Source of the DNA: Patescibacteria group bacterium
GTDB lineage: Bacteria; Patescibacteriota; Minisyncoccia; Phycocordibacterales; UBA9973
Assembly: GCA_040390725.1 (NCBI GenBank)
Contig: JAZJXT010000003.1
Location: forward strand, 34,502 to 98,501
Direction: 5' to 3'
DNA length: 64,000 bases
The position numbers and the translations under genes were made by a program. The notes under the pieces are model-generated. The model did not search any database and had not been told where the DNA came from. It saw nothing but the letters and a program-made list of their open reading frames with translations. Below are positions 31,640 through 63,609 of this stretch, piece after piece; position 1 is the first letter of the stretch; each line of letters starts with the position of its first letter.

Positions 31640-31746
31640 TTCTATATCATAGCAGTTTTTCTATAAATTATTTGCTTGACTATATATAACTAAAATGCAA
31701 TAATATAGGCTGTTCTTTTTACCTTAAACCTTAACCGCACAAAGAA

Positions 31747-34869: not shown

Positions 34870-35017
34870 TGATTTGATTTGTTTAATTTGTTAAATGAAA
34901 AATAAAGTGTATGTCGACTACTTCTAACCCCTAAATTCCTTACATTAAGTATAGCAAATTACATTTCATTTGTCAAGCAAAGTGGCTATTTTCCCTTAAA
35001 TAGGCTAGTCTGTATCA

Positions 35018-40690: not shown

Positions 40691-41310
40691 ATATTTTTTT
40701 CTAAAAATTTTTTACCATGTCCAACTTTTATATTTATTGGTACACCATTTTTACATAATGGACATTCTTCTGCTGTGTACATTGTTATTTCATATTCACT
40801 TAATGAATCAAAAGTATCTCCCAGCATTTTTTTGTTTACAACTGTTGGATTTTTGTTTACCATCACGCATACGCCTACTATTATTCCGTCATTTTGTTTT
40901 ACTGCATTGATTGTTTTTAAAACCGATCCACCGGTGGTGACTATGTCTTCGATAATTAAAACTTTTTTTCCTTTTACGTATTCGTCATATCCTCGGGTGA
41001 AAACCTGATTTTTTTCTGCATCTTTTTCTGTATAAATTCCTAAGACTTCTTTGCCGGTTAATTTTGTCAGATGATACGCAGTCCATTGTGATAAAATTAT
41101 CCCGCCCAAAGCCGGCGCGACGACTATCTCCACATCAGCATCTTTGTATTTTTCCGCGAAAAGTTTACCCATTTCTGAAGCGTATTGTGTGTGCGGATAC
41201 AAAGCGTCTTTATTTATATAAGTATCAAAATGAAGCCCTGAAGTACCCACAAAATGACTATTTTCTAGCATTGCTCCAGATTTCTTTAATATTTCGATTG
41301 CTTCATTCAC
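40687..41310 (-). CDS. pyrE: Orotate phosphoribosyltransferase
   Basis: PRPP-binding motif VLIIEDIVTTGGS; stop overlaps the pyrF start; C-terminal CPLC extension. Confidence 0.8.
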   Translation of the reverse strand: MNEAIEILKKSGAMLENSHFVGTSGLHFDTYINKDALYPHTQYASEMGKLFAEKYKDADVEIVVAPALGGIILSQWTAYHLTKLTGKEVLGIYTEKDAEKNQVFTRGYDEYVKGKKVLIIEDIVTTGGSVLKTINAVKQNDGIIVGVCVMVNKNPTVVNKKMLGDTFDSLSEYEITMYTAEECPLCKNGVPINIKVGHGKKFLEKNI

Positions 41311-41474
41311 AGATGTATTATATTAGATTTATGAAAAATATCGCTCTTGACAAATTTATGTATTTATATAGACTTATAAATGAATTTCCAGCTTATATAT
41401 TATATTATGCTGGAGCTCAAAAGGAGTTAGCTGAAAATCCTTTAAAGAGTAAGCATGTTCATTAATTTATCGTT

Positions 41475-41927
41475 ATGGCCGTAAGAGTAGCTATGTTTGG
41501 TGCCGGGAATTCCTGGCGCAAAAAATTTAAGTCGGAATATGAAAAACACGGTATTCCATTTTATGATATTTTGAAAAATTCAAAAAATATAATGAAATAC
41601 ATAGAATATCCTGTCATTGTTTGTCCTGTGTCCGGGGAGGACTATGGTTTTGATGCTATAGCTCAGGTGGATTTCTTTATTTCCAAACTAACGGAAATGC
41701 CGGGTGGGTACGGAAGAGATGTTTGTTTTTTTATTGAGAGAAAGCTCGACGAAAAATTAAAAAATACATTTCTAAGAAGGTTATCCGACCATGCTCGTGC
41801 CCGTGTTGTTCACACCTTAAAAAAAGTAATTACGAATAAGAAGGTAAACGTAAATGCTAATATTCATCTCATTGATTCAATGGATGAGTTGCTGGACTTT
41901 AGTATTCGTTTAGCGAACTATAGGTAG
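41475..41927 (+). CDS. Hypothetical protein embedded in the pyr gene cluster
   Basis: 150 aa, MAVRVAMFGAGNSWRK… Gly-rich N-terminus; no confident family. Confidence 0.35.
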   Translation: MAVRVAMFGAGNSWRKKFKSEYEKHGIPFYDILKNSKNIMKYIEYPVIVCPVSGEDYGFDAIAQVDFFISKLTEMPGGYGRDVCFFIERKLDEKLKNTFLRRLSDHARARVVHTLKKVITNKKVNVNANIHLIDSMDELLDFSIRLANYR

Positions 41928-46226: not shown

Positions 46227-46419
46227 AAGGATTTAATTAAGTGGACGGAAAAGACTTTAATATATAAAATATAGAAAAAATCTACTCTGTCCACCCAATA
46301 AAATCAATTTCAAAGAGCTAATGCTGTTTTAAACATAGCATATTAAATATGCATTTGTCAACGCAGGCGCAAGTAAAAAATATGCTAAACTGAAGTGGTA
46401 TTTCAGTAAATCATTTTTT

Positions 46420-53155: not shown

Positions 53156-53259
53156 ATATTTTTATAAGTTATTTATAATTTAATATTATAGCATGGTTTT
53201 AAATATGCACCATTTTTATTGTTTCCTCGTATATAAAAAGGGTGTATAATAAATGTATG

Positions 53260-53727
53260 AAAAAATTAACTTCATTTTTAGAACTTTATTCGCATAGCGT
53301 TCTTCGTATTGGATTGTCTATGGTTATTCTTTGGTTTAGTTCACAACAGTTTTTACACACCGATGCGTGGACGGCATATGTGCCGGATTCAGCTGTGGCT
53401 GTGACGCATTTGAGTGCAGTGACTCTCGTTTATTTTAATGCAGTGTTTGAATTGGTTTTCGGCATTATACTTTTATTCGGATGGAAAACAAGATTAGCCG
53501 CGTTTCTACTTTCTTTGCATCTTTTCGATATAATGTATGTCGTTGGTTATGGAGAAATAGGTGTGCGGGATTTTGGGCTCGCTGTCGCTACATTTACTGT
53601 ATTTATGAATGGACCGGATATGCTTTGTGCGGATCAAAAGAAAAATTATGATAATGTAGAAAGTATTAAAAATTTTTTACCCAAGGCGGATCAGCCTGTG
53701 GTTGAAAAAGTAAAAAAGTTTATTTAA
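53260..53727 (+). CDS. DoxX-family membrane protein
   Basis: 4 TM with …LRIGLSMVILWFSSQQF… pattern typical of DoxX/DoxD-like proteins. Confidence 0.5.
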   Translation, partial: KKLTSFLELYSHSVLRIGLSMVILWFSSQQFLHTDAWTAYVPDSAVAVTHLSAVTLVYFNAVFELVFGIILLFGWKTRLAAFLLSLHLFDIMYVVGYGEIGVRDFGLAVATFTVFMNGPDMLCADQKKNYDNVESIKNFLPKADQPVVEKVKKFI

Positions 53728-56620: not shown

Positions 56621-56668
56621 ATCATATTTTAATAAAAATAAATTTTTTTGCCTGCTTGAATGTTGTTC

Positions 56669-56697
56669 TTGATTTTATTCCCAAGCAGTGGTAGTCT
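56669..56697 (+). promoter_or_regulatory. Array promoter motif copy 1 (TTGATT-N17-TAGTCT, GTGGTAGTCT core)
   Basis: …cttgattttattcccaagcagtggtagtct…; same GTGGTAGTCT core as copies at 57795, 58769 and 60938. Confidence 0.5.
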
Positions 56698-56758
56698 AAT
56701 AAACGGATTTGTTCGGACGAACAGTTCAAAGATGTTTAACCTTTAAAAATTACATACC

Positions 56759-57160
56759 ATGAAAGTACTTCAAAGTTTAATTCAGACCCAGTCGAAATTA
56801 CATCCTCTTTTTGATAAATATTTTTCCGATGTAGAAGTATTTATTAAATTAGTAAAGCGAAAAGTCGGTACAAGTTTTATTTTTTCAGTGTCTTTTTTAA
56901 GGCCAAGCTTTAACTTTTTATTAACAATAAAAACCAAAGATGAAGAAGAAAGCAGGTTCGTAGAGATTCGTATACTCGAAAATGAAGTAAGCATCGAGTA
57001 TTTTCAAAGAGACAAACAAACTGTTAAAAAATCTTTACCCACTTATTCTACCGTTATGTTTAAGGTGGATGGAAACAATGTTGATGTTTTTGTCTTTGAA
57101 TTAGAATTTCAAGTAAAACATTTTCTACGGGGACAGCTTCCGTTCAAGTATCTGGACTAA
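56759..57160 (+). CDS. Hypothetical protein, 133 aa (array member 1)
   Basis: ORF about 60 nt downstream of array promoter copy 1. Confidence 0.4.
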   Translation: MKVLQSLIQTQSKLHPLFDKYFSDVEVFIKLVKRKVGTSFIFSVSFLRPSFNFLLTIKTKDEEESRFVEIRILENEVSIEYFQRDKQTVKKSLPTYSTVMFKVDGNNVDVFVFELEFQVKHFLRGQLPFKYLD

Positions 57161-57258
57161 ATATTATCGCTAAGTCCGAGACATGAAAGGCGGACATAAA
57201 AAATACCGAGTAGTATTAATTGTATTTTTTTTAGTTTTTTACCTTAAATTTTTAACTT

Positions 57259-57738
57259 ATGAGAAGAGTAATTTTTGCCCGAATTATTGGTGGTGATAAA
57301 GAAAGTTTGTCTACAAGAGATAAATTGAAATTAAAGTCTATGATGAAGAAAATTGAAAGTAGAATTGGTGAAAAATCTTCATTTTTGATTTTATTTGCCA
57401 CAGAACCATTAGCTCAACAAAATGCCGAAGCATTGTCTCAAATGAATTTTGGGAATTACCAACCATTAGAAGCATTGTGTATGAGTGAAGAAAGTGAACA
57501 AAAACTGGAGGAAATTTATTTAAAGGTAAAGGAGCTTGGGAAGACTTCGGATGCTGAGAATATTATTGTACTTACCCATGTACTTTATTGTAGGGATTTG
57601 CCACTTTTCTTTTTTGAAAAGATGTATAGTAAAAAAACTTACATGAATTTTAACTTAAATCAAAAGGCATGGATGTTAAAAGAAGGGCAAGCCTGGTTGA
57701 TGGATTGCATGTATGGAAAAATCTACAAAGTTGACTAA
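57259..57738 (+). CDS. Hypothetical protein, 159 aa (array member 2)
   Basis: Intact ORF; followed by terminator aaagccttggtaaccccatggcttttttatt. Confidence 0.4.
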   Translation: MRRVIFARIIGGDKESLSTRDKLKLKSMMKKIESRIGEKSSFLILFATEPLAQQNAEALSQMNFGNYQPLEALCMSEESEQKLEEIYLKVKELGKTSDAENIIVLTHVLYCRDLPLFFFEKMYSKKTYMNFNLNQKAWMLKEGQAWLMDCMYGKIYKVD

Positions 57739-57794
57739 AATAAAATGTTTTTTAAATAAAAGCCTTGGTAACCCCATGGCTTTTTTATTACCTC

Positions 57795-57824
57795 TTGTAA
57801 AATTTTAGCATTATGTGGTAGTCT
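57795..57824 (+). promoter_or_regulatory. Array promoter motif copy 2 (TTGTAA-N18-TAGTCT)
   Basis: cttgtaaaattttagcattatgtggtagtct. Confidence 0.5.
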
Positions 57825-57888
57825 AAAAACAGACGGAGTTACCGTTATTTGAAATATGAATAAAAAAGTCCTTAGGAGGGGCTGTAAA

Positions 57889-58710
57889 ATGAAGACTTTC
57901 GCTGATTTATTACTAAAGTATGCGGAAAAATACTTTATTGTGTTAATGATAGTAGTTGGTATTTTCATATTATTTTTTGGAATACTTGTTACTTCCTTGT
58001 TTGTATTGGGCATCCTGACTTTAAGTTTTTGTATTTATTCACTCATAGGTTACAAGAGAAAAATGGATACAAAAAAACTTAAAGAAAAGAATGAAGATAA
58101 GTTTTTCAAAGAGCTCGAATTATATCGAGTTGAAACCCGAAGTTTTATTAATTTTCTTGAAAGTAATAGAGAAAAATTTTACTCTCAGGAATCTTTAAAA
58201 AATATGAGTAGGCTTAATAGCGTTGCCCAGGAGGTTGAAAAAATACAAGAAAAATATATTAAAAAGGGTGCTTTTAAAAAACATCTTGAAGAAGTAGGAA
58301 AAGAAAGTTTGGAAGAATGGCGATTAAAAACTAATGTGATCGATCGATTTGTTAATGGATATGTAAACAAGCAAACAGTTAAATTTAACAATGAACTGAT
58401 TAATCAAAGTATGACCATACAGCTAAAACTTCAAACATCGCAAGCTGTTGCTCAAAGTTGGTATCCTTTATTTAACGATCTTCTTCCTGTTGCAAAAACA
58501 TCTCCAGGTTTTATCGAAAAATGTGAAGATTTTTTAAAAAAGTCACTTAATTTTTTTAGACTTACACGTGAATTAAATCTTGGAAATAAATCATTTGGCA
58601 TAGATTTGATTTTTGATTACCCTGAGGCTATTTTGAAATACATAAATTCTGAAAAGTTTGTTCATTATTCTTCTGAGCTTGAATCTCTTAAGGTAGTTTT
58701 ATGTAGGTAA
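57889..58710 (+). CDS. Membrane-anchored (2 TM) helical protein, 273 aa (array member 3)
   Basis: Start at MKTFADLL with AGGAGG 7 nt upstream; track ORF begins at 57856; terminator gacccggcaattgtcgggtttttt follows. Confidence 0.5.
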   Translation: MKTFADLLLKYAEKYFIVLMIVVGIFILFFGILVTSLFVLGILTLSFCIYSLIGYKRKMDTKKLKEKNEDKFFKELELYRVETRSFINFLESNREKFYSQESLKNMSRLNSVAQEVEKIQEKYIKKGAFKKHLEEVGKESLEEWRLKTNVIDRFVNGYVNKQTVKFNNELINQSMTIQLKLQTSQAVAQSWYPLFNDLLPVAKTSPGFIEKCEDFLKKSLNFFRLTRELNLGNKSFGIDLIFDYPEAILKYINSEKFVHYSSELESLKVVLCR

Positions 58711-58768
58711 ATGTGTGTAGTAATTTAGGTTTAAAGACCCGGCAATTGTCGGGTTTTTTATTACCCTC

Positions 58769-58798
58769 TTGTAAAATTCTAGTATTATGTGCTAGTCT
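58769..58798 (+). promoter_or_regulatory. Array promoter motif copy 3
   Basis: cttgtaaaattctagtattatgtgctagtct. Confidence 0.5.
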
Positions 58799-58799
58799 T

Positions 58800-58942
58800 T
58801 GAACAGATATGAGTTCGTTTTCTTCCTGAATCGAATTTGGCATTTTGGCACTTTTTTACTATAAACGGTCCTAAGATGCTGAATTTGATTATTTCCACGT
58901 ATGGTGGAGAGTCTTAGGAGGTAAACTTTTAAAATTTAAGTC
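58800..58942 (+). ncRNA. Conserved about 140-nt 5' leader (paralog of 60968-61112), candidate cis-regulatory RNA
   Basis: agttcgttttcttc…ggcattttggcactttt…ggtcctaagatgctgaatttgattat…ttaggaggtaaacttttaaaatttaagtcATG is about 85% identical to the leader of the gene at 61113. Confidence 0.4.
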
Positions 58943-59542
58943 ATGAAAAAGAACTCAAATTCACTTTTCTTAGTTTCAGTATTTTTATTTATATCCATGT
59001 TTGTAAGCTTTTCAAAATTAGAAGTTTCTACGTTAGATGGATACTATATTCTCGGTTTCTTATTGTTTTTATTTGGTATTTTTTTCCTTGGTAAAGCTTT
59101 TATTTTGACATTTACCGGAGAACCGGTAGGTAAGTCTTTGTTAGTAGAAGGGGCGGGGATTTCAGTTCATCGTGCTCTTTATGGCAAAGACGCAGAGAAT
59201 CTTTATTTTGCAACTCTTGAAGAAAGCGGGCAGGATATTATTTTAGAGGAAGAAATGCAAATACTGAGATCAGATAGACTATACTATCTTAGTTCTGAAA
59301 ATAAATGGAAAGAAACACCAGAGGAGGGAAGTCCTGCATTTGTTAAAAAATCTAAAAAATTTTTGAGTGCTCTTCGAGTAATTAAAAATCAGGACGCACG
59401 AATTGTTTTTCATGAACATGGTGGAAAACCATTTTATAAAAAAGTAAGTGAGGTGATCAAAAAAATTGAAAGTGGTGAACACCCTGGAGAAGAGTATGTA
59501 AAGTCTTGGGATAAATCAAAACAAAAAATAGTTTTTAAGTAA
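58943..59542 (+). CDS. 2-TM membrane protein with C-terminal soluble domain (array member 4; paralog of 61113-61640)
   Basis: Shares topology and motif ENKWKETPEEGS (versus NRWKETQKMKEPETGG) with the paralog; terminator atagcatcttttaaaagatgctatttttttt follows. Confidence 0.5.
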   Translation: MKKNSNSLFLVSVFLFISMFVSFSKLEVSTLDGYYILGFLLFLFGIFFLGKAFILTFTGEPVGKSLLVEGAGISVHRALYGKDAENLYFATLEESGQDIILEEEMQILRSDRLYYLSSENKWKETPEEGSPAFVKKSKKFLSALRVIKNQDARIVFHEHGGKPFYKKVSEVIKKIESGEHPGEEYVKSWDKSKQKIVFK

Positions 59543-59678
59543 GATATTTGATTTATAGCATCTTTTAAAAGATGCTATTTTTTTTACCCTTTGCTACTTA
59601 GAGAGGTTGTAGGCTTGAAAGAGTATGGTTGCCACTTAAAAACAAAAAAGCCTTCATTAATGAGGGCTTTTATTTATG

Positions 59679-59921
59679 TTATTCGCAACACTCAATGGCT
59701 CTGCCGTTTTTATAGACGTCATATTCATCTTGTGTCACAAAAACTCTTTTAATTTGACAGTCATCTAAAAATACCAAAGATGGAGCAGCAGGGTCCGCAC
59801 TAACTGCACTTTGTCCGCAAAAGTCTGTCAGTTTATTTGTATTTTTAGGGACAGACTCTATGAAAATACCACATCCATTTATTATTAAAATGATCGGCAA
59901 TAACAGAAATATTTTTTTCAT
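59679..59921 (-). CDS. Small lipoprotein, 80 aa
   Basis: Signal peptide with lipobox LIINGC; five further Cys; terminator aaagccctcattaatgaaggcttttttg downstream. Confidence 0.5.
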   Translation of the reverse strand: MKKIFLLLPIILIINGCGIFIESVPKNTNKLTDFCGQSAVSADPAAPSLVFLDDCQIKRVFVTQDEYDVYKNGRAIECCE

Positions 59922-60070
59922 TTTTAAGAACTAGATCTTTAGGTCACTAGTCTATTGTAAAGAATAGCAGACAATTAAAAGTATTACAATAATATTATTT
60001 GATGTTGTTGGAGGTATAAAAATAAAAAGTCCGGGATAACCAGGACTTTTAAAAATAGGCATAAGGTATA

Positions 60071-60451
60071 TTAAAATAGATCAGGGATAGGCTTAACTTT
60101 CACGAACTCCTCATTTTGTATTTCATACTTGCAATCATTTTCTAGAAGTTTGTTTGTAATAAAAAAACAAAATTTTACGTTTCTTATGGAGGCTTTACGC
60201 ATTACTGCATAATTACTTCCACTAAAAGCATAGGAGTAAACAACAATCCAACTAGTGCCATTGCTAAATTTTTTCACACTTGCCGGGCGACCTACGCTAA
60301 AAGTTCCTCCTGTAGCGATAGAGGCTCCGATTAAGCCACACATCATAACAAACAATACAAAGAATGTTCCAATATTAACATCTAAGTGTTGAGCAAGAAA
60401 AACTATACCTACAGCTGTAACCATAAGCATTATAATACTAATTGTTTTCAT
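60071..60451 (-). CDS. Hypothetical membrane protein, 126 aa
   Basis: Two N-terminal TM helices then soluble segment. Confidence 0.4.
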   Translation of the reverse strand: MKTISIIMLMVTAVGIVFLAQHLDVNIGTFFVLFVMMCGLIGASIATGGTFSVGRPASVKKFSNGTSWIVVYSYAFSGSNYAVMRKASIRNVKFCFFITNKLLENDCKYEIQNEEFVKVKPIPDLF

Positions 60452-60552
60452 AACTTTAAGAAGAACGGGGAAAAGACGTTCAAATAGATATTACTACATT
60501 TAAACTTTTTGGCAAATGTTTAAAATAAAAAGCACTGACTAAAGTTAATTAA

Positions 60553-60867
60553 TCAGTGCTTATGGTTTTGTCTTTTCTGAGTAAGTTTTACAAACTCATC
60601 GTAATCCATGTAACTTTTTGCAAAATTGCAAAACCTGCAAGCTAGCACTAAATTACTCAAAACATTGGCTCCGCCTTTTGAAGTTGGAATTACATGATCT
60701 CTTGTAATATTTTCCATCTTAAAAAGATCTCCGCAATAATGGCATTTATAGTATTCTATGCCTTCCACTATTTTTGGATTTTCAAAAAGCTCTGGAGGGG
60801 TTTTGCTTTCAGGGGAAAGCATTTTTAACATACTTAAGGCAAGGTATTGGTTCTTTTTCTTATCCAT
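60553..60867 (-). CDS. Stand-alone HNH endonuclease, 104 aa
   Basis: …CHYCGDLFKMENITRDHVIPTSKGGANVLSNLVLACRFCNFAKSY… canonical HNH beta-beta-alpha-metal motif (C-x2-C…DH…N…C-x2-C). Confidence 0.75.
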   Translation of the reverse strand: MDKKKNQYLALSMLKMLSPESKTPPELFENPKIVEGIEYYKCHYCGDLFKMENITRDHVIPTSKGGANVLSNLVLACRFCNFAKSYMDYDEFVKLTQKRQNHKH

Positions 60868-60937
60868 TTTTATATGATTTTAATGGTACAAACTCGTTAG
60901 GATTATAGTATACAGGTAGCGATAAGTCTATTTTTAC

Positions 60938-60967
60938 TTGTAAAATTCTAGCATTGTGTGGTAGTCT
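60938..60967 (+). promoter_or_regulatory. Array promoter motif copy 4
   Basis: cttgtaaaattctagcattgtgtggtagtct, followed by the conserved leader 60968-61112. Confidence 0.5.
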
Positions 60968-61112
60968 TTGTGCAGAATCTAGTTCGTTTTCTTCTTTAGT
61001 CGAGTTCGGCATTTTGGCACTTTGTTTAAAAATAAGGTCCTAAAATGCTGAATTTGATTATCTGCCAACTAGGGTCAGAGTTAAAGGAAGTAAACTTTTA
61101 CAATCATAAGTT

Positions 61113-61640
61113 ATGAGAAAGAATAATTCGATACCCTTTATAGTATTAGGGTTTGTTATGTTGATTTCAGTGTTTGTTGGAATTTATTATCAAGCAAAAG
61201 AAGTAAAAATAGGTAGCGAAATGCCAATAGTTTTTATGTGTATTATTGTCGCTATTTCTTACTGCAGTGCTTTTATCATTATTTATGGTTTTATGTCTCT
61301 TTGGGACAAAGTAAAAGTTTCTTCGGTGACTAAAAAGGATATTGTCCAATACACAGAAATTAAAGTTTTGCGTCATGTGGGGAGTAGTGATGGAAAAAAA
61401 TTACTTCATGTCTTTTCAATCGTTCCGGAAGATGGACCAAATGTGAGGCATACATTTCTTATTTCTTTTCAAAATGGAGACACTTGTTTTCTAAAAAATG
61501 AAAAGCGAAAGTTGGAAGTCGACACAACTTATTTTATTGATTGTAAAAATCGATGGAAAGAAACGCAAAAAATGAAGGAGCCTGAAACAGGAGGAACATT
61601 GAAAGAAAAGCAAGAAAGACTTTTGCAACATCTTCAGTAA
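61113..61640 (+). CDS. 2-TM membrane protein with C-terminal soluble domain (array member 5; paralog of 58943-59542)
   Basis: MRKNNSIPFIVLGFVMLISVFVGIYY…; conserved leader and promoter upstream; terminator aatggcaccttatacaggatgccatttttttt downstream. Confidence 0.5.
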   Translation: MRKNNSIPFIVLGFVMLISVFVGIYYQAKEVKIGSEMPIVFMCIIVAISYCSAFIIIYGFMSLWDKVKVSSVTKKDIVQYTEIKVLRHVGSSDGKKLLHVFSIVPEDGPNVRHTFLISFQNGDTCFLKNEKRKLEVDTTYFIDCKNRWKETQKMKEPETGGTLKEKQERLLQHLQ

Positions 61641-61864
61641 ATTGTAGATAAGACTGCACAAATTTCCATAGGGCACTCTACTTTTATAACAGTAGAGCAG
61701 TTAATTATTGAGGTTGAAAAAATGACTTCACTAGGCATGGAACACATTAAACGTTGGGATCAAACTTAAGTCGCTTTAAAATTTGTTGTGAAATGGCACC
61801 TTATACAGGATGCCATTTTTTTTACTTATTTTTTAAAACCAATAATATCTGAACTATTTATTTT

Positions 61865-62239
61865 TTAGAATTTTATCGAATATTTTCCCGCACCGGAGCC
61901 CAGGAGGGCTAAGATCGCGCCGAGCATAGCGAGGGGAGTGGAGTATACTTGAAAGCCCATTTTGTATGTGAAATAAATTGCGAATATCATAACTACTGCT
62001 AAGAAAATTTTTGCAATTTCAGAAAATAATCCCAAAACCAATAAAGCCCCGCACAAAACTTCTCCATAAGAAACTATGTAAGTTAAAAATGTTGGTATGT
62101 GCAAAGTACTAAAGAATCCGATAGTTTGCGCCATATCGGAAACTTTCATCCAACCAGCATATATAAAAATTCCCCCAATAATAAATCTGCTAATAAGTAT
62201 TGCGACGTCTCTGTGCTCATTTAAAAATTGTTTTATCAT
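61865..62239 (-). CDS. DoxX-family membrane protein
   Basis: 124 aa, 4 TM, …ILISRFIIGGIFIYAGWMK…YGEVLCGALLVLGLF… typical DoxX pattern. Confidence 0.5.
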   Translation of the reverse strand: MIKQFLNEHRDVAILISRFIIGGIFIYAGWMKVSDMAQTIGFFSTLHIPTFLTYIVSYGEVLCGALLVLGLFSEIAKIFLAVVMIFAIYFTYKMGFQVYSTPLAMLGAILALLGSGAGKYSIKF

Positions 62240-63084: not shown

Positions 63085-63609
63085 CTATGCAGGAATATAT
63101 AAAAGTTTGAGTTTTTCCAGTCCGCGATGGAGTTGGACGGCTATGGAATTTTTCGTTTCTCCGGTGATGCCTGACATTTCTTTTAAAGATAAGTCTTTTA
63201 CGTATTTCATCAACATTATTTTTTGATATTTTATCGGCAGGTGTTTAATTAAAAGAATAATTTTTTTTGCGTCTAATTTATCGGCAAGGACATCAAGCGT
63301 GGGAATATTACTGACTTTAGGCTCGAAGCCTTTTTCTATCAATAAGTCTAGAGAGCTAGCTTTGTGTTTCCTGTATTCATCTACGATTAGATTATTCAGG
63401 ACGTGATAAAGAAAAGATTTCATTAAATCAATTTTCCCGCCTTTTAATAAATATTTCCAAGTTTTTAGAAATGTGTCTTGCACCAAGTCTTCGCCTGCCT
63501 CGTGATTATGAGTTTTATAGAATGCGTATAGATTAAGTCCCTTCTCATGGTCGTTGTGAGCCAATGTCATTATTGCCAGCCTTTCTGTCTTCTGTTTTAA
63601 CGTCATCAT
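63085..63609 (-). CDS. ECF-type RNA polymerase sigma factor (sigma-70 regions 2 and 4)
   Basis: Region 2: EDLVQDTFLKTWKYLLKGGKIDLMKSFLYHVLNNLIVDEYRKHK; region 4 HTH: LPIKYQKIMLMKYVKDLSLKEMSGITGETKNSIAVQLHRGLEKLK. Confidence 0.75.
   Translation of the reverse strand: MMTLKQKTERLAIMTLAHNDHEKGLNLYAFYKTHNHEAGEDLVQDTFLKTWKYLLKGGKIDLMKSFLYHVLNNLIVDEYRKHKASSLDLLIEKGFEPKVSNIPTLDVLADKLDAKKIILLIKHLPIKYQKIMLMKYVKDLSLKEMSGITGETKNSIAVQLHRGLEKLKLLYIPA

Follow-up and report, generated by a model that had tools for sequence, protein, structure and literature searches.

Two paralogous genes in a Patescibacteria genome share a structured 5′ leader with the marks of a cis-acting RNA

We analyzed a 64-kb window, the whole stretch of DNA considered here, from a Patescibacteria metagenome-assembled genome (104-kb contig; locus record NCBI protein MES2023530.1, locus tags V4439_02495 and 02500) and found that two diverged paralogous genes within it, A and B, are preceded by leaders carrying an RNA fold whose selection as a cis-acting element is well supported by sequence comparison. 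It is likewise well supported that the leader is a new structured 5′ untranslated region (UTR) of a known general kind. The two genes lie in an array marked by four copies of one promoter motif, and the locus as a whole is, with somewhat better than even confidence, best explained as a few lineage-specific transcription units produced by duplication within one Patescibacteria lineage. An independent Logan assembly (run SRR26324628) contained 14,779 nucleotides (nt) identical to the locus, so neither the repeats nor the stop codon found within B is an artifact of one assembler. The GC content was 35% for the whole window and 29–32% for the array; the window uses the standard genetic code, with TGA as the stop in 7 of 71 open reading frames (ORFs).

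The leaders extend from the predicted transcription start to the AUG, a length of 138–139 nt. Their features, in window positions, are given below, with the helices taken from the consensus fold and its pair counts.

58805–58942, + strand: leader A, a three-helix RNA with a minimum free energy of −44.6 kcal/mol (z −4.7) and a covariance model score of 168 bits.
58817–58828/58915–58926 (H1), 58829–58856/58863–58890 (H2) and 58892–58897/58905–58910 (H3), + strand: helices of leader A.
60974–61112, + strand: leader B, the same three-helix fold, with a minimum free energy of −45.6 kcal/mol (z −5.5) and a covariance model score of 175 bits.
60986–60997/61084–61095 (H1), 60998–61025/61032–61059 (H2) and 61061–61066/61074–61079 (H3), + strand: helices of leader B.

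Folded alone, each leader gave the same structure, and the consensus contained 42 pairs in three helices, all of them formed in both copies. Eleven consensus pairs vary between the copies (seven on one side and four on both) and none is broken. The paired columns hold 15 substitutions without the loss of a pair, an outcome seen in 0 of 200,000 Monte Carlo trials that scattered as many transitions and as many transversions randomly over the paired columns. Divergence was 36% at unpaired and 18% at paired columns, and moving the pairing partners by 1–3 columns lowered the pairing from 100% to 37–62%. The plus strand folded at −46 and −44 kcal/mol and the complement at −22 and −21 kcal/mol; the plus strand is twice as stable because six to seven G–U pairs form only in the plus-strand RNA, an asymmetry that favors an RNA element over a DNA palindrome. 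The first-pass annotation of the DNA had suspected a cis-acting RNA element and proposed aligning the two leaders and testing them for covariance: such an element is indicated by the fold that the leaders share, by substitutions that leave it intact and by the difference between the strands.

At the level of sequence, the leaders were 74.3% identical (110 of 148 columns), and identity was 82% over the promoter and the first 95 nt of the leader; the 38 differing columns consist of 37 substitutions and one 1-nt indel. An earlier figure of about 85% thus proved too high as a pairwise identity, the "mean column identity" of 85–87% reported by the alignment tool being a different measure, while the claim that the leaders are far more similar than the coding sequences stood. 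H1 is the closing helix and pairs a CU-rich 5′ strand with an AGGAGG-like purine tract (UUAGGAGGU in A); the strands read GUUUUCUUCCUG with UUAGGAGGUAAAC in A and GUUUUCUUCUUU with UAAAGGAAGUAAAC in B. H2 has 20 contiguous pairs, or 26 bp when counted across two 1×1 internal loops, and is capped by a nonconserved apical loop; H3 is short and variable. No upstream ORF was conserved between the leaders, the peptide MSSFSS* being encoded only in A.

The likeness of promoters and leaders could also be a leftover of duplication or gene conversion, with a hairpin that has no function. There are just two copies, separated by 2.2 kb of a single genome: a search with the leader covariance model recovered these two from the window and no others there or in 275 kb of further genome loci, and scans of viral and of metagenome contigs with the leader pattern gave 0 matches each, as a leftover might lead one to expect. 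A looser pattern gave four metagenome matches, which on reading were unrelated GC-rich repeats, and Rfam 15 gave no match to the leaders at gathering scores and, at E ≤ 5, only a chance microRNA-hairpin match (E 3.2). We nevertheless consider a functionless leftover very unlikely, as 38 columns differ, yet no substitution in a paired column breaks a pair; the paired columns are half as diverged as the unpaired ones; and the conservation breaks off abruptly at the −35 element and close to the ATG, with third codon positions nearly saturated.

A DNA-level element, either a miniature inverted-repeat transposable element or an integron attC-like site in a cassette array, would account for tandem ORFan genes with a long imperfect inverted repeat between them and an HNH nuclease encoded nearby. 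The stem of this repeat, however, needs the six to seven G–U pairs and folds half as well on the complementary strand, and direct reading of both strands showed no GTTRRRY/RYYYAAC core at its base. The repeat is found at two genes only and sits between promoter and ATG. A search of a phage collection with the DNA and proteins of the locus gave no match, and a scan of ten locus proteins against PHROGs and PADLOC returned nothing but the HNH domain, although no search was aimed specifically at an integrase or transposase. The probability we attach to a DNA-level element is close to negligible.

The similarity of A and B reaches well beyond the leaders and comprises the following features.

58943–59542, + strand: paralog A, 199 aa, an ORFan with two N-terminal transmembrane (TM) segments and a soluble part of ~140 aa.
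59555–59587, + strand: terminator of A, homologous to the terminator of B (82% identity).
61113–61769, + strand: paralog B; the annotated ORF of 175 aa stops at an in-frame TAA (61638–61640), a second TAA lies at 61767–61769, and reading through the first gives 218 aa.
61790–61825, + strand: terminator of the B unit, following the extended frame (−14.1 kcal/mol, z −3.1) and belonging to one repeat family with the terminator of A.

The annotated proteins matched each other in BLASTP with an E value of 6e-7 and share the motif NKWKET/NRWKET, bearing out their earlier description as diverged paralogs with a common motif. When B was read through its stop, the match improved to 4e-10 over 225 columns: past the TAA the same frame runs for 42 codons that align with the C terminus of A (...IKRWDQT* versus ...VKSWDKSKQ). 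The terminator of B sits after 61769, and none directly follows the TAA at 61640. The in-frame TAA is thus probably a recent nonsense mutation and B a pseudogene, with readthrough as the alternative. Identity between the two units was 86.5% in the promoter and 82% in the terminator, compared with 50.6% of nucleotides (47% at third codon positions) and 27.8% of amino acids in the coding sequence, and the block of high similarity sets in abruptly at the −35 element and tapers off over roughly the first four codons of the ORF. To judge from this distribution of similarity, A and B are best explained as duplicates of an entire unit, from promoter and leader through the coding sequence to the terminator, in which the regulatory parts would have been retained while the coding sequence drifted.

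Two further observations concern this pair. The terminators (59555–59587 and 61793–61825) show matching changes in their arms, with ATAGCATC/GATGCTAT in one and ATGGCAC/GATGCCAT in the other. Each paralog also contains two (K/R)W(K/D)(E/K/Q)(T/S) motifs ~65 residues apart (59300–59320 and 59505–59520 in A; 61551–61568 and 61752–61766 in B), which could be a sign that the soluble part has undergone internal duplication.

The leaders would be transcribed from two of the four copies of a promoter-like motif, which had been noted 5′ of the genes at 56759, 57889, 58943 and 61113 and which we located as follows.

56669–56697, + strand: promoter copy 1, diverged; TTGATT-N17-TGGTAGTCT, predicted start ~56704; identified from exact GTGGTAGTCT, from TGNTAGTCT and from the four-copy alignment.
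57795–57824, + strand: promoter copy 2; TTGTAA-N18-TAGTCT with extended −10 TGG, predicted start 57831.
58769–58798, + strand: promoter copy 3; TTGTAA-N18-TAGTCT with TGC, predicted start 58805.
60938–60967, + strand: promoter copy 4; TTGTAA-N18-TAGTCT with TGG, predicted start 60974.

The 30-nt motif TTGTAAAATTYTAGYATTRTGTGSTAGTCT occurs at copies 2–4, with 0 occurrences expected; the diverged copy 1 has the form TTGATT-N17-TAGTCT. Within the 64 kb, TGNTAGTCT was present at these four sites only, so in this window the motif is specific to the locus and no general promoter string, in line with the first-pass annotation. A scan of public genome contigs with the promoter pattern gave 0 matches. 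Copies 2–4 are 87–93% identical over the whole 30 nt, spacer included (27 or 28 of 30 nt). In all four copies a TG stands one base 5′ of a TAnnnT −10 hexamer (TGGTAGTCT or TGCTAGTCT), a TTGnnn −35 element lies at 17–18 nt (TTGTAA-N18 or TTGATT-N17), and copies 2–4 have a conserved A exactly 7 nt past the hexamer, the A of a conserved CAGA, which is the predicted start.

The ordinary genes of the window offered a reference for this layout. A TGnTAnnnT lies within 15 nt of the start codon in 11 of 71 genes, and many of these promoters near an ATG have a TTGnnn at N17 (TTGCAT, TTGCGA, TTGCTT or TTGTGT). At nine genes the distance from the end of the TGnTAnnnT to the ATG is exactly 6 nt: 10673(−), 19865(+), 25001(−), 28595(−), 30213(+), 31639(−), 32314(+), 32695(+) and 38837(−). 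Because of this spacing, the sequence implies leaderless mRNAs, starting at the A of the ATG, for these nine genes, and many mRNAs in this genome appear to be leaderless.

As the geometry of the array motif equals that of the ordinary promoters of the window, we infer that the array promoters are of the housekeeping, sigma-A-like type with an extended −10, both the sigma factor used and the transcription start being predictions. They resemble sigma-70/sigma-A extended −10 promoters (TGnTATAAT) in the TG one base 5′ of TAnnnT, in the TTGnnn 17–18 nt upstream and in the predicted start 7 nt downstream; they differ in the hexamer TAGTCT and in a 30-nt identity that takes in the spacer and goes beyond the contacts of sigma. 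Near-identity of this extent exceeds what sigma needs, and common descent, a shared regulator or both may lie behind it. The spacer holds a near-palindrome, AATtCTAGcATT, that matches at 10 of 12 positions in two copies and at 8 of 12 in the third, and so no more than weakly suggests a dyad operator.

Two other readings of the promoter region were rejected: a sigma-54 reading of TGGCAC in the leader, which has no GC at −12, and minus-strand ORFs of 50–51 aa across the promoters, which we took for by-products of the DNA conservation. Elsewhere in the window, a recurrent ATTTGTCAAGC-like motif lies 5′ of several unrelated genes at variable distance to the −10 (~34965–35017, 41272–41330(−), 46360–46419 and 31640–31700(−)).

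The first-pass annotation had likened the GTCT of the hexamer to the −10 element of extracytoplasmic function (ECF) sigma factors and envisaged dedicated regulation. If so, the four promoters would be the regulon of the neighboring sigma gene (63085–63609) and the locus an envelope-stress module. That gene, 1.2 kb downstream of the array, is indeed of ECF type (57 bits for TIGR02937, where the cutoff is 42.9); GTC occurs in the −10 region, and the G and C of TAGTCT are strictly kept in all four copies despite a genome of 35% GC; the motif is confined to the array locus; and three of the driven genes are predicted to encode membrane proteins. ECF promoters, however, are of the GGAAC-N16–17-CGTC type, and the array has no AAC-type −35: the position reads TTGTAA or TTGATT, with no GGAAC or TGAAC at the right distance. 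Every copy has the extended −10 TG, whose recognition falls to sigma region 3.0, a region absent from ECF sigmas. The motif geometry is identical to that of the ordinary promoters, and the 76-nt region 5′ of the sigma gene (upstream of 63609), which the annotation had proposed to check, lacks the motif and carries TTGCTA ... TGCTATGGT. No anti-sigma gene was recognized beside the sigma gene, where the neighbor encodes a DUF1761 protein, and three orthologous sigma loci showed neither TGNTAGTCT nor the array, and no synteny with the latter. A dedicated ECF regulon is thus not supported by these comparisons, and we regard it as distinctly unlikely.

Among the best 120 of more than 2,500 matching proteins, the sigma family shows 62–70% identity, and the named members are mostly Parcubacteria or Paceibacterota. 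The three orthologous loci come from distant genomes (GC 38–57%) and have, 5′ of the sigma gene, two direct-repeat pairs GTAATA-N5-GTAAT(A/G) (L086, 9800–10000; L087, 4995–5193; L088, 9800–10000). These repeats resemble a conserved regulator-binding layout and are absent 5′ of the sigma gene of the window.

Returning to the leaders, the best reading of the fold models is a posttranscriptional restraint of the A and B mRNAs. Each unit would start at its sigma-A-like promoter (TTGTAA, 18 nt, TG(G/C)TAGTCT, start 7 nt past the hexamer); the fold would keep the ribosome-landing region closed and poorly translated and set the fate of the mRNA; and release or decay would come through cleavage of the long helix by an RNase III-like double-strand nuclease, or through another trans factor. 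The mean unpaired probability from the AUG to +15 is 0.30–0.34 in A and B, compared with 0.59 in the neighboring genes g273 and g133, which amounts to no more than a moderate predicted occlusion. RNase III-gated or structure-occluded 5′ leaders are known from adhE, pnp and rnc of Escherichia coli, and by analogy with these H2 is a plausible RNase III target: with 20 contiguous pairs and 26 in all, it offers the ~20 bp of near-continuous double-stranded RNA characteristic of an RNase III substrate. The array leaders share with the E. coli ones a long helix of at least 20 bp in the 5′ UTR and the pairing of a purine-rich tract like a ribosome-binding site. They differ in having no sequence relation to them and an AGGAGG-like tract 21–22 nt from the AUG.

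Several points weigh against this account. The AGGAGG-like tract is too far from the AUG for a canonical Shine–Dalgarno (SD) sequence, so its pairing may not control initiation, and because of this distance it is uncertain whether H1 blocks a working ribosome-binding site; g273 carries the same UUAGGAGG at a normal 7-nt spacing (AGGAGGGG, 7 nt 5′ of its ATG). In single-sequence folds that extend into the first codons, the CU-rich strand instead finds its partner in the purine-rich codons 1–5; H1 persists in the consensus fold. No signature of an RNase III gene was found within the window. At the promoter, the conserved spacer could mean a dedicated regulator and not plain sigma-A control. As for the fold, there are two leader copies from one genome and the covariation rests on a single pair of sequences; the structure was tested on the very two sequences that had yielded it; and the built-in shuffle control was weak (36 of 500).

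The fold might instead act mainly as a stabilizer of the 5′ end against 5′-end-dependent decay, or as a ribosome standby site, and so raise expression. The 5′ hairpin of ompA and the STAB-SD element of cryIIIA are precedents for stabilizers. Such a role would suit a structured domain that runs from ~13 nt past the predicted 5′ end to ~15 nt before the AUG, an AU-rich stretch by the start that is about half unpaired (mean unpaired probability 0.51–0.56) and an SD-like tract too distant for a working ribosome-binding site. It agrees less well with the predicted pairing of that tract, which is free in STAB-SD, with a 26-bp helix well beyond the needs of 5′ protection and with a segment from AUG to +15 that is less accessible than in the neighboring genes. 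We treat a purely stabilizing 5′ structure as a serious alternative to posttranscriptional restraint, with a low but appreciable probability.

The competition between H1 and the first codons also allows a more specific model, under which the leader would represent a novel riboregulator class specific to this Candidate Phyla Radiation (CPR) lineage. Here the CU-rich strand would switch between an SD-like decoy and the first codons (AUGAAAAAGAA/AUGAGAAAGAA), gated by RNase III, a protein or another signal. Fast-evolving 2-TM envelope proteins would be under its control, in a genome with many apparently leaderless mRNAs (at least 9 of 71 window genes); we think this model unlikely. RNA thermometers that sequester the SD sequence (ROSE and fourU) likewise pair a pyrimidine strand with an SD-like tract in the 5′ UTR, in a marginally stable hairpin that melts at 30–42 °C. 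The array leader differs in its energy of about −45 kcal/mol, its 26-bp helix and its lack of an Rfam match, and we rejected a thermometer, as structures of −44.6 and −45.6 kcal/mol are far too stable to melt at physiological temperatures. A type I toxin–antitoxin system was also dismissed: A has 199 aa and B 175 (218) aa, compared with fewer than 60 aa for the toxins, and no antisense element was identified.

The other genes and terminators of the locus are listed here.

56759–57160, + strand: g133, a 133-aa soluble ORFan with no terminator after it.
57259–57738, + strand: g159, a 159-aa soluble ORFan (AlphaFold2 mean predicted local distance difference test (pLDDT) 49.5).
57758–57790, + strand: terminator of the g133–g159 unit, a hairpin (−11.4 kcal/mol, z −3.1) with a U run after it.
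57889–58710, + strand: g273, an ORFan in which a hydrophobic region at the N terminus precedes a helical soluble part.
58733–58764, + strand: terminator of g273 (−17.9 kcal/mol, z −4.8).
59679–59921, − strand: putative lipoprotein of 80 aa, with lipobox ..INGC and five Cys; interleaved.
60071–60451, − strand: 2-TM protein of 126 aa; interleaved.
60553–60867, − strand: predicted stand-alone HNH nuclease of 104 aa, divergent from B (Pfam HNH_5, 9.8e-14; PHROG HNH, 2e-18).

As g133 is followed by no terminator and g159 is preceded by no promoter copy, the two form one bicistronic unit, in which g159 is probably cotranscribed with g133. The description of the array as genes each with their own terminator therefore holds for g159, g273, A and B and fails for g133. 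Its description as a set of 2-TM ORFans is correct for A and B, and g273 has an N-terminal hydrophobic region; TM prediction placed N-terminal hydrophobic segments only in g273, A and B and no TM segment in g133 or g159. The three interleaved minus-strand genes were found as described, the HNH assignment resting on a Pfam E value of 1e-13; the tie of the putative lipoprotein to the array is one of position within the locus. DoxX-family genes flank the array on both sides, one at 53257–53727 (+), ~2.9 kb upstream past pdxS, pdxT and ApbE, and one at 61865–62239 (−), adjoining the array end.

Homology searches set the ORFans apart. A and g273 gave only self-matches among 5.8 billion proteins, and a profile built from A and B, run against 1.84 billion representatives, retrieved only A, B and one low-complexity repeat protein that we judged spurious; the ORFans had no matches in Pfam, PADLOC, PHROGs, NCBIfam or the PDB sequences. 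The structure prediction recommended for the paralog domains was run for A and gave no confident model, the AlphaFold2 models of A and g159 having pLDDT values of ~50 and being unusable. A synteny search based on PdxS found no relative closer than 72% identity, and none with the motif. Units with their own promoter and terminator that encode an ORFan recall the "morons" of phages; they differ from these in that no prophage context was found at the array and that only the HNH protein matches phage families. Away from the array, Rfam placed a DUF805b RNA at 41421–41455 (+) (40.4 bits; gathering score 35.6), a short way 5′ of an ORF of 150 aa (41475–41927) that had no Pfam match at 1e-3.

The general importance of the element is limited, as it is known from two copies in one genome, and the control of genes seen at the array, though real, is local and of a rather ordinary kind. 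How uncultured Patescibacteria (CPR) regulate their genes has nevertheless hardly been studied, and the window shows a contrast within one genome: ordinary genes appear to be leaderless, with the promoter abutting the ATG, whereas a few lineage-specific membrane-protein genes have long leaders, two of them with a selected fold. If the fold is regulatory, it would be one of the few cis-acting RNAs documented in the CPR and would indicate that fast-evolving envelope proteins are under tight control.

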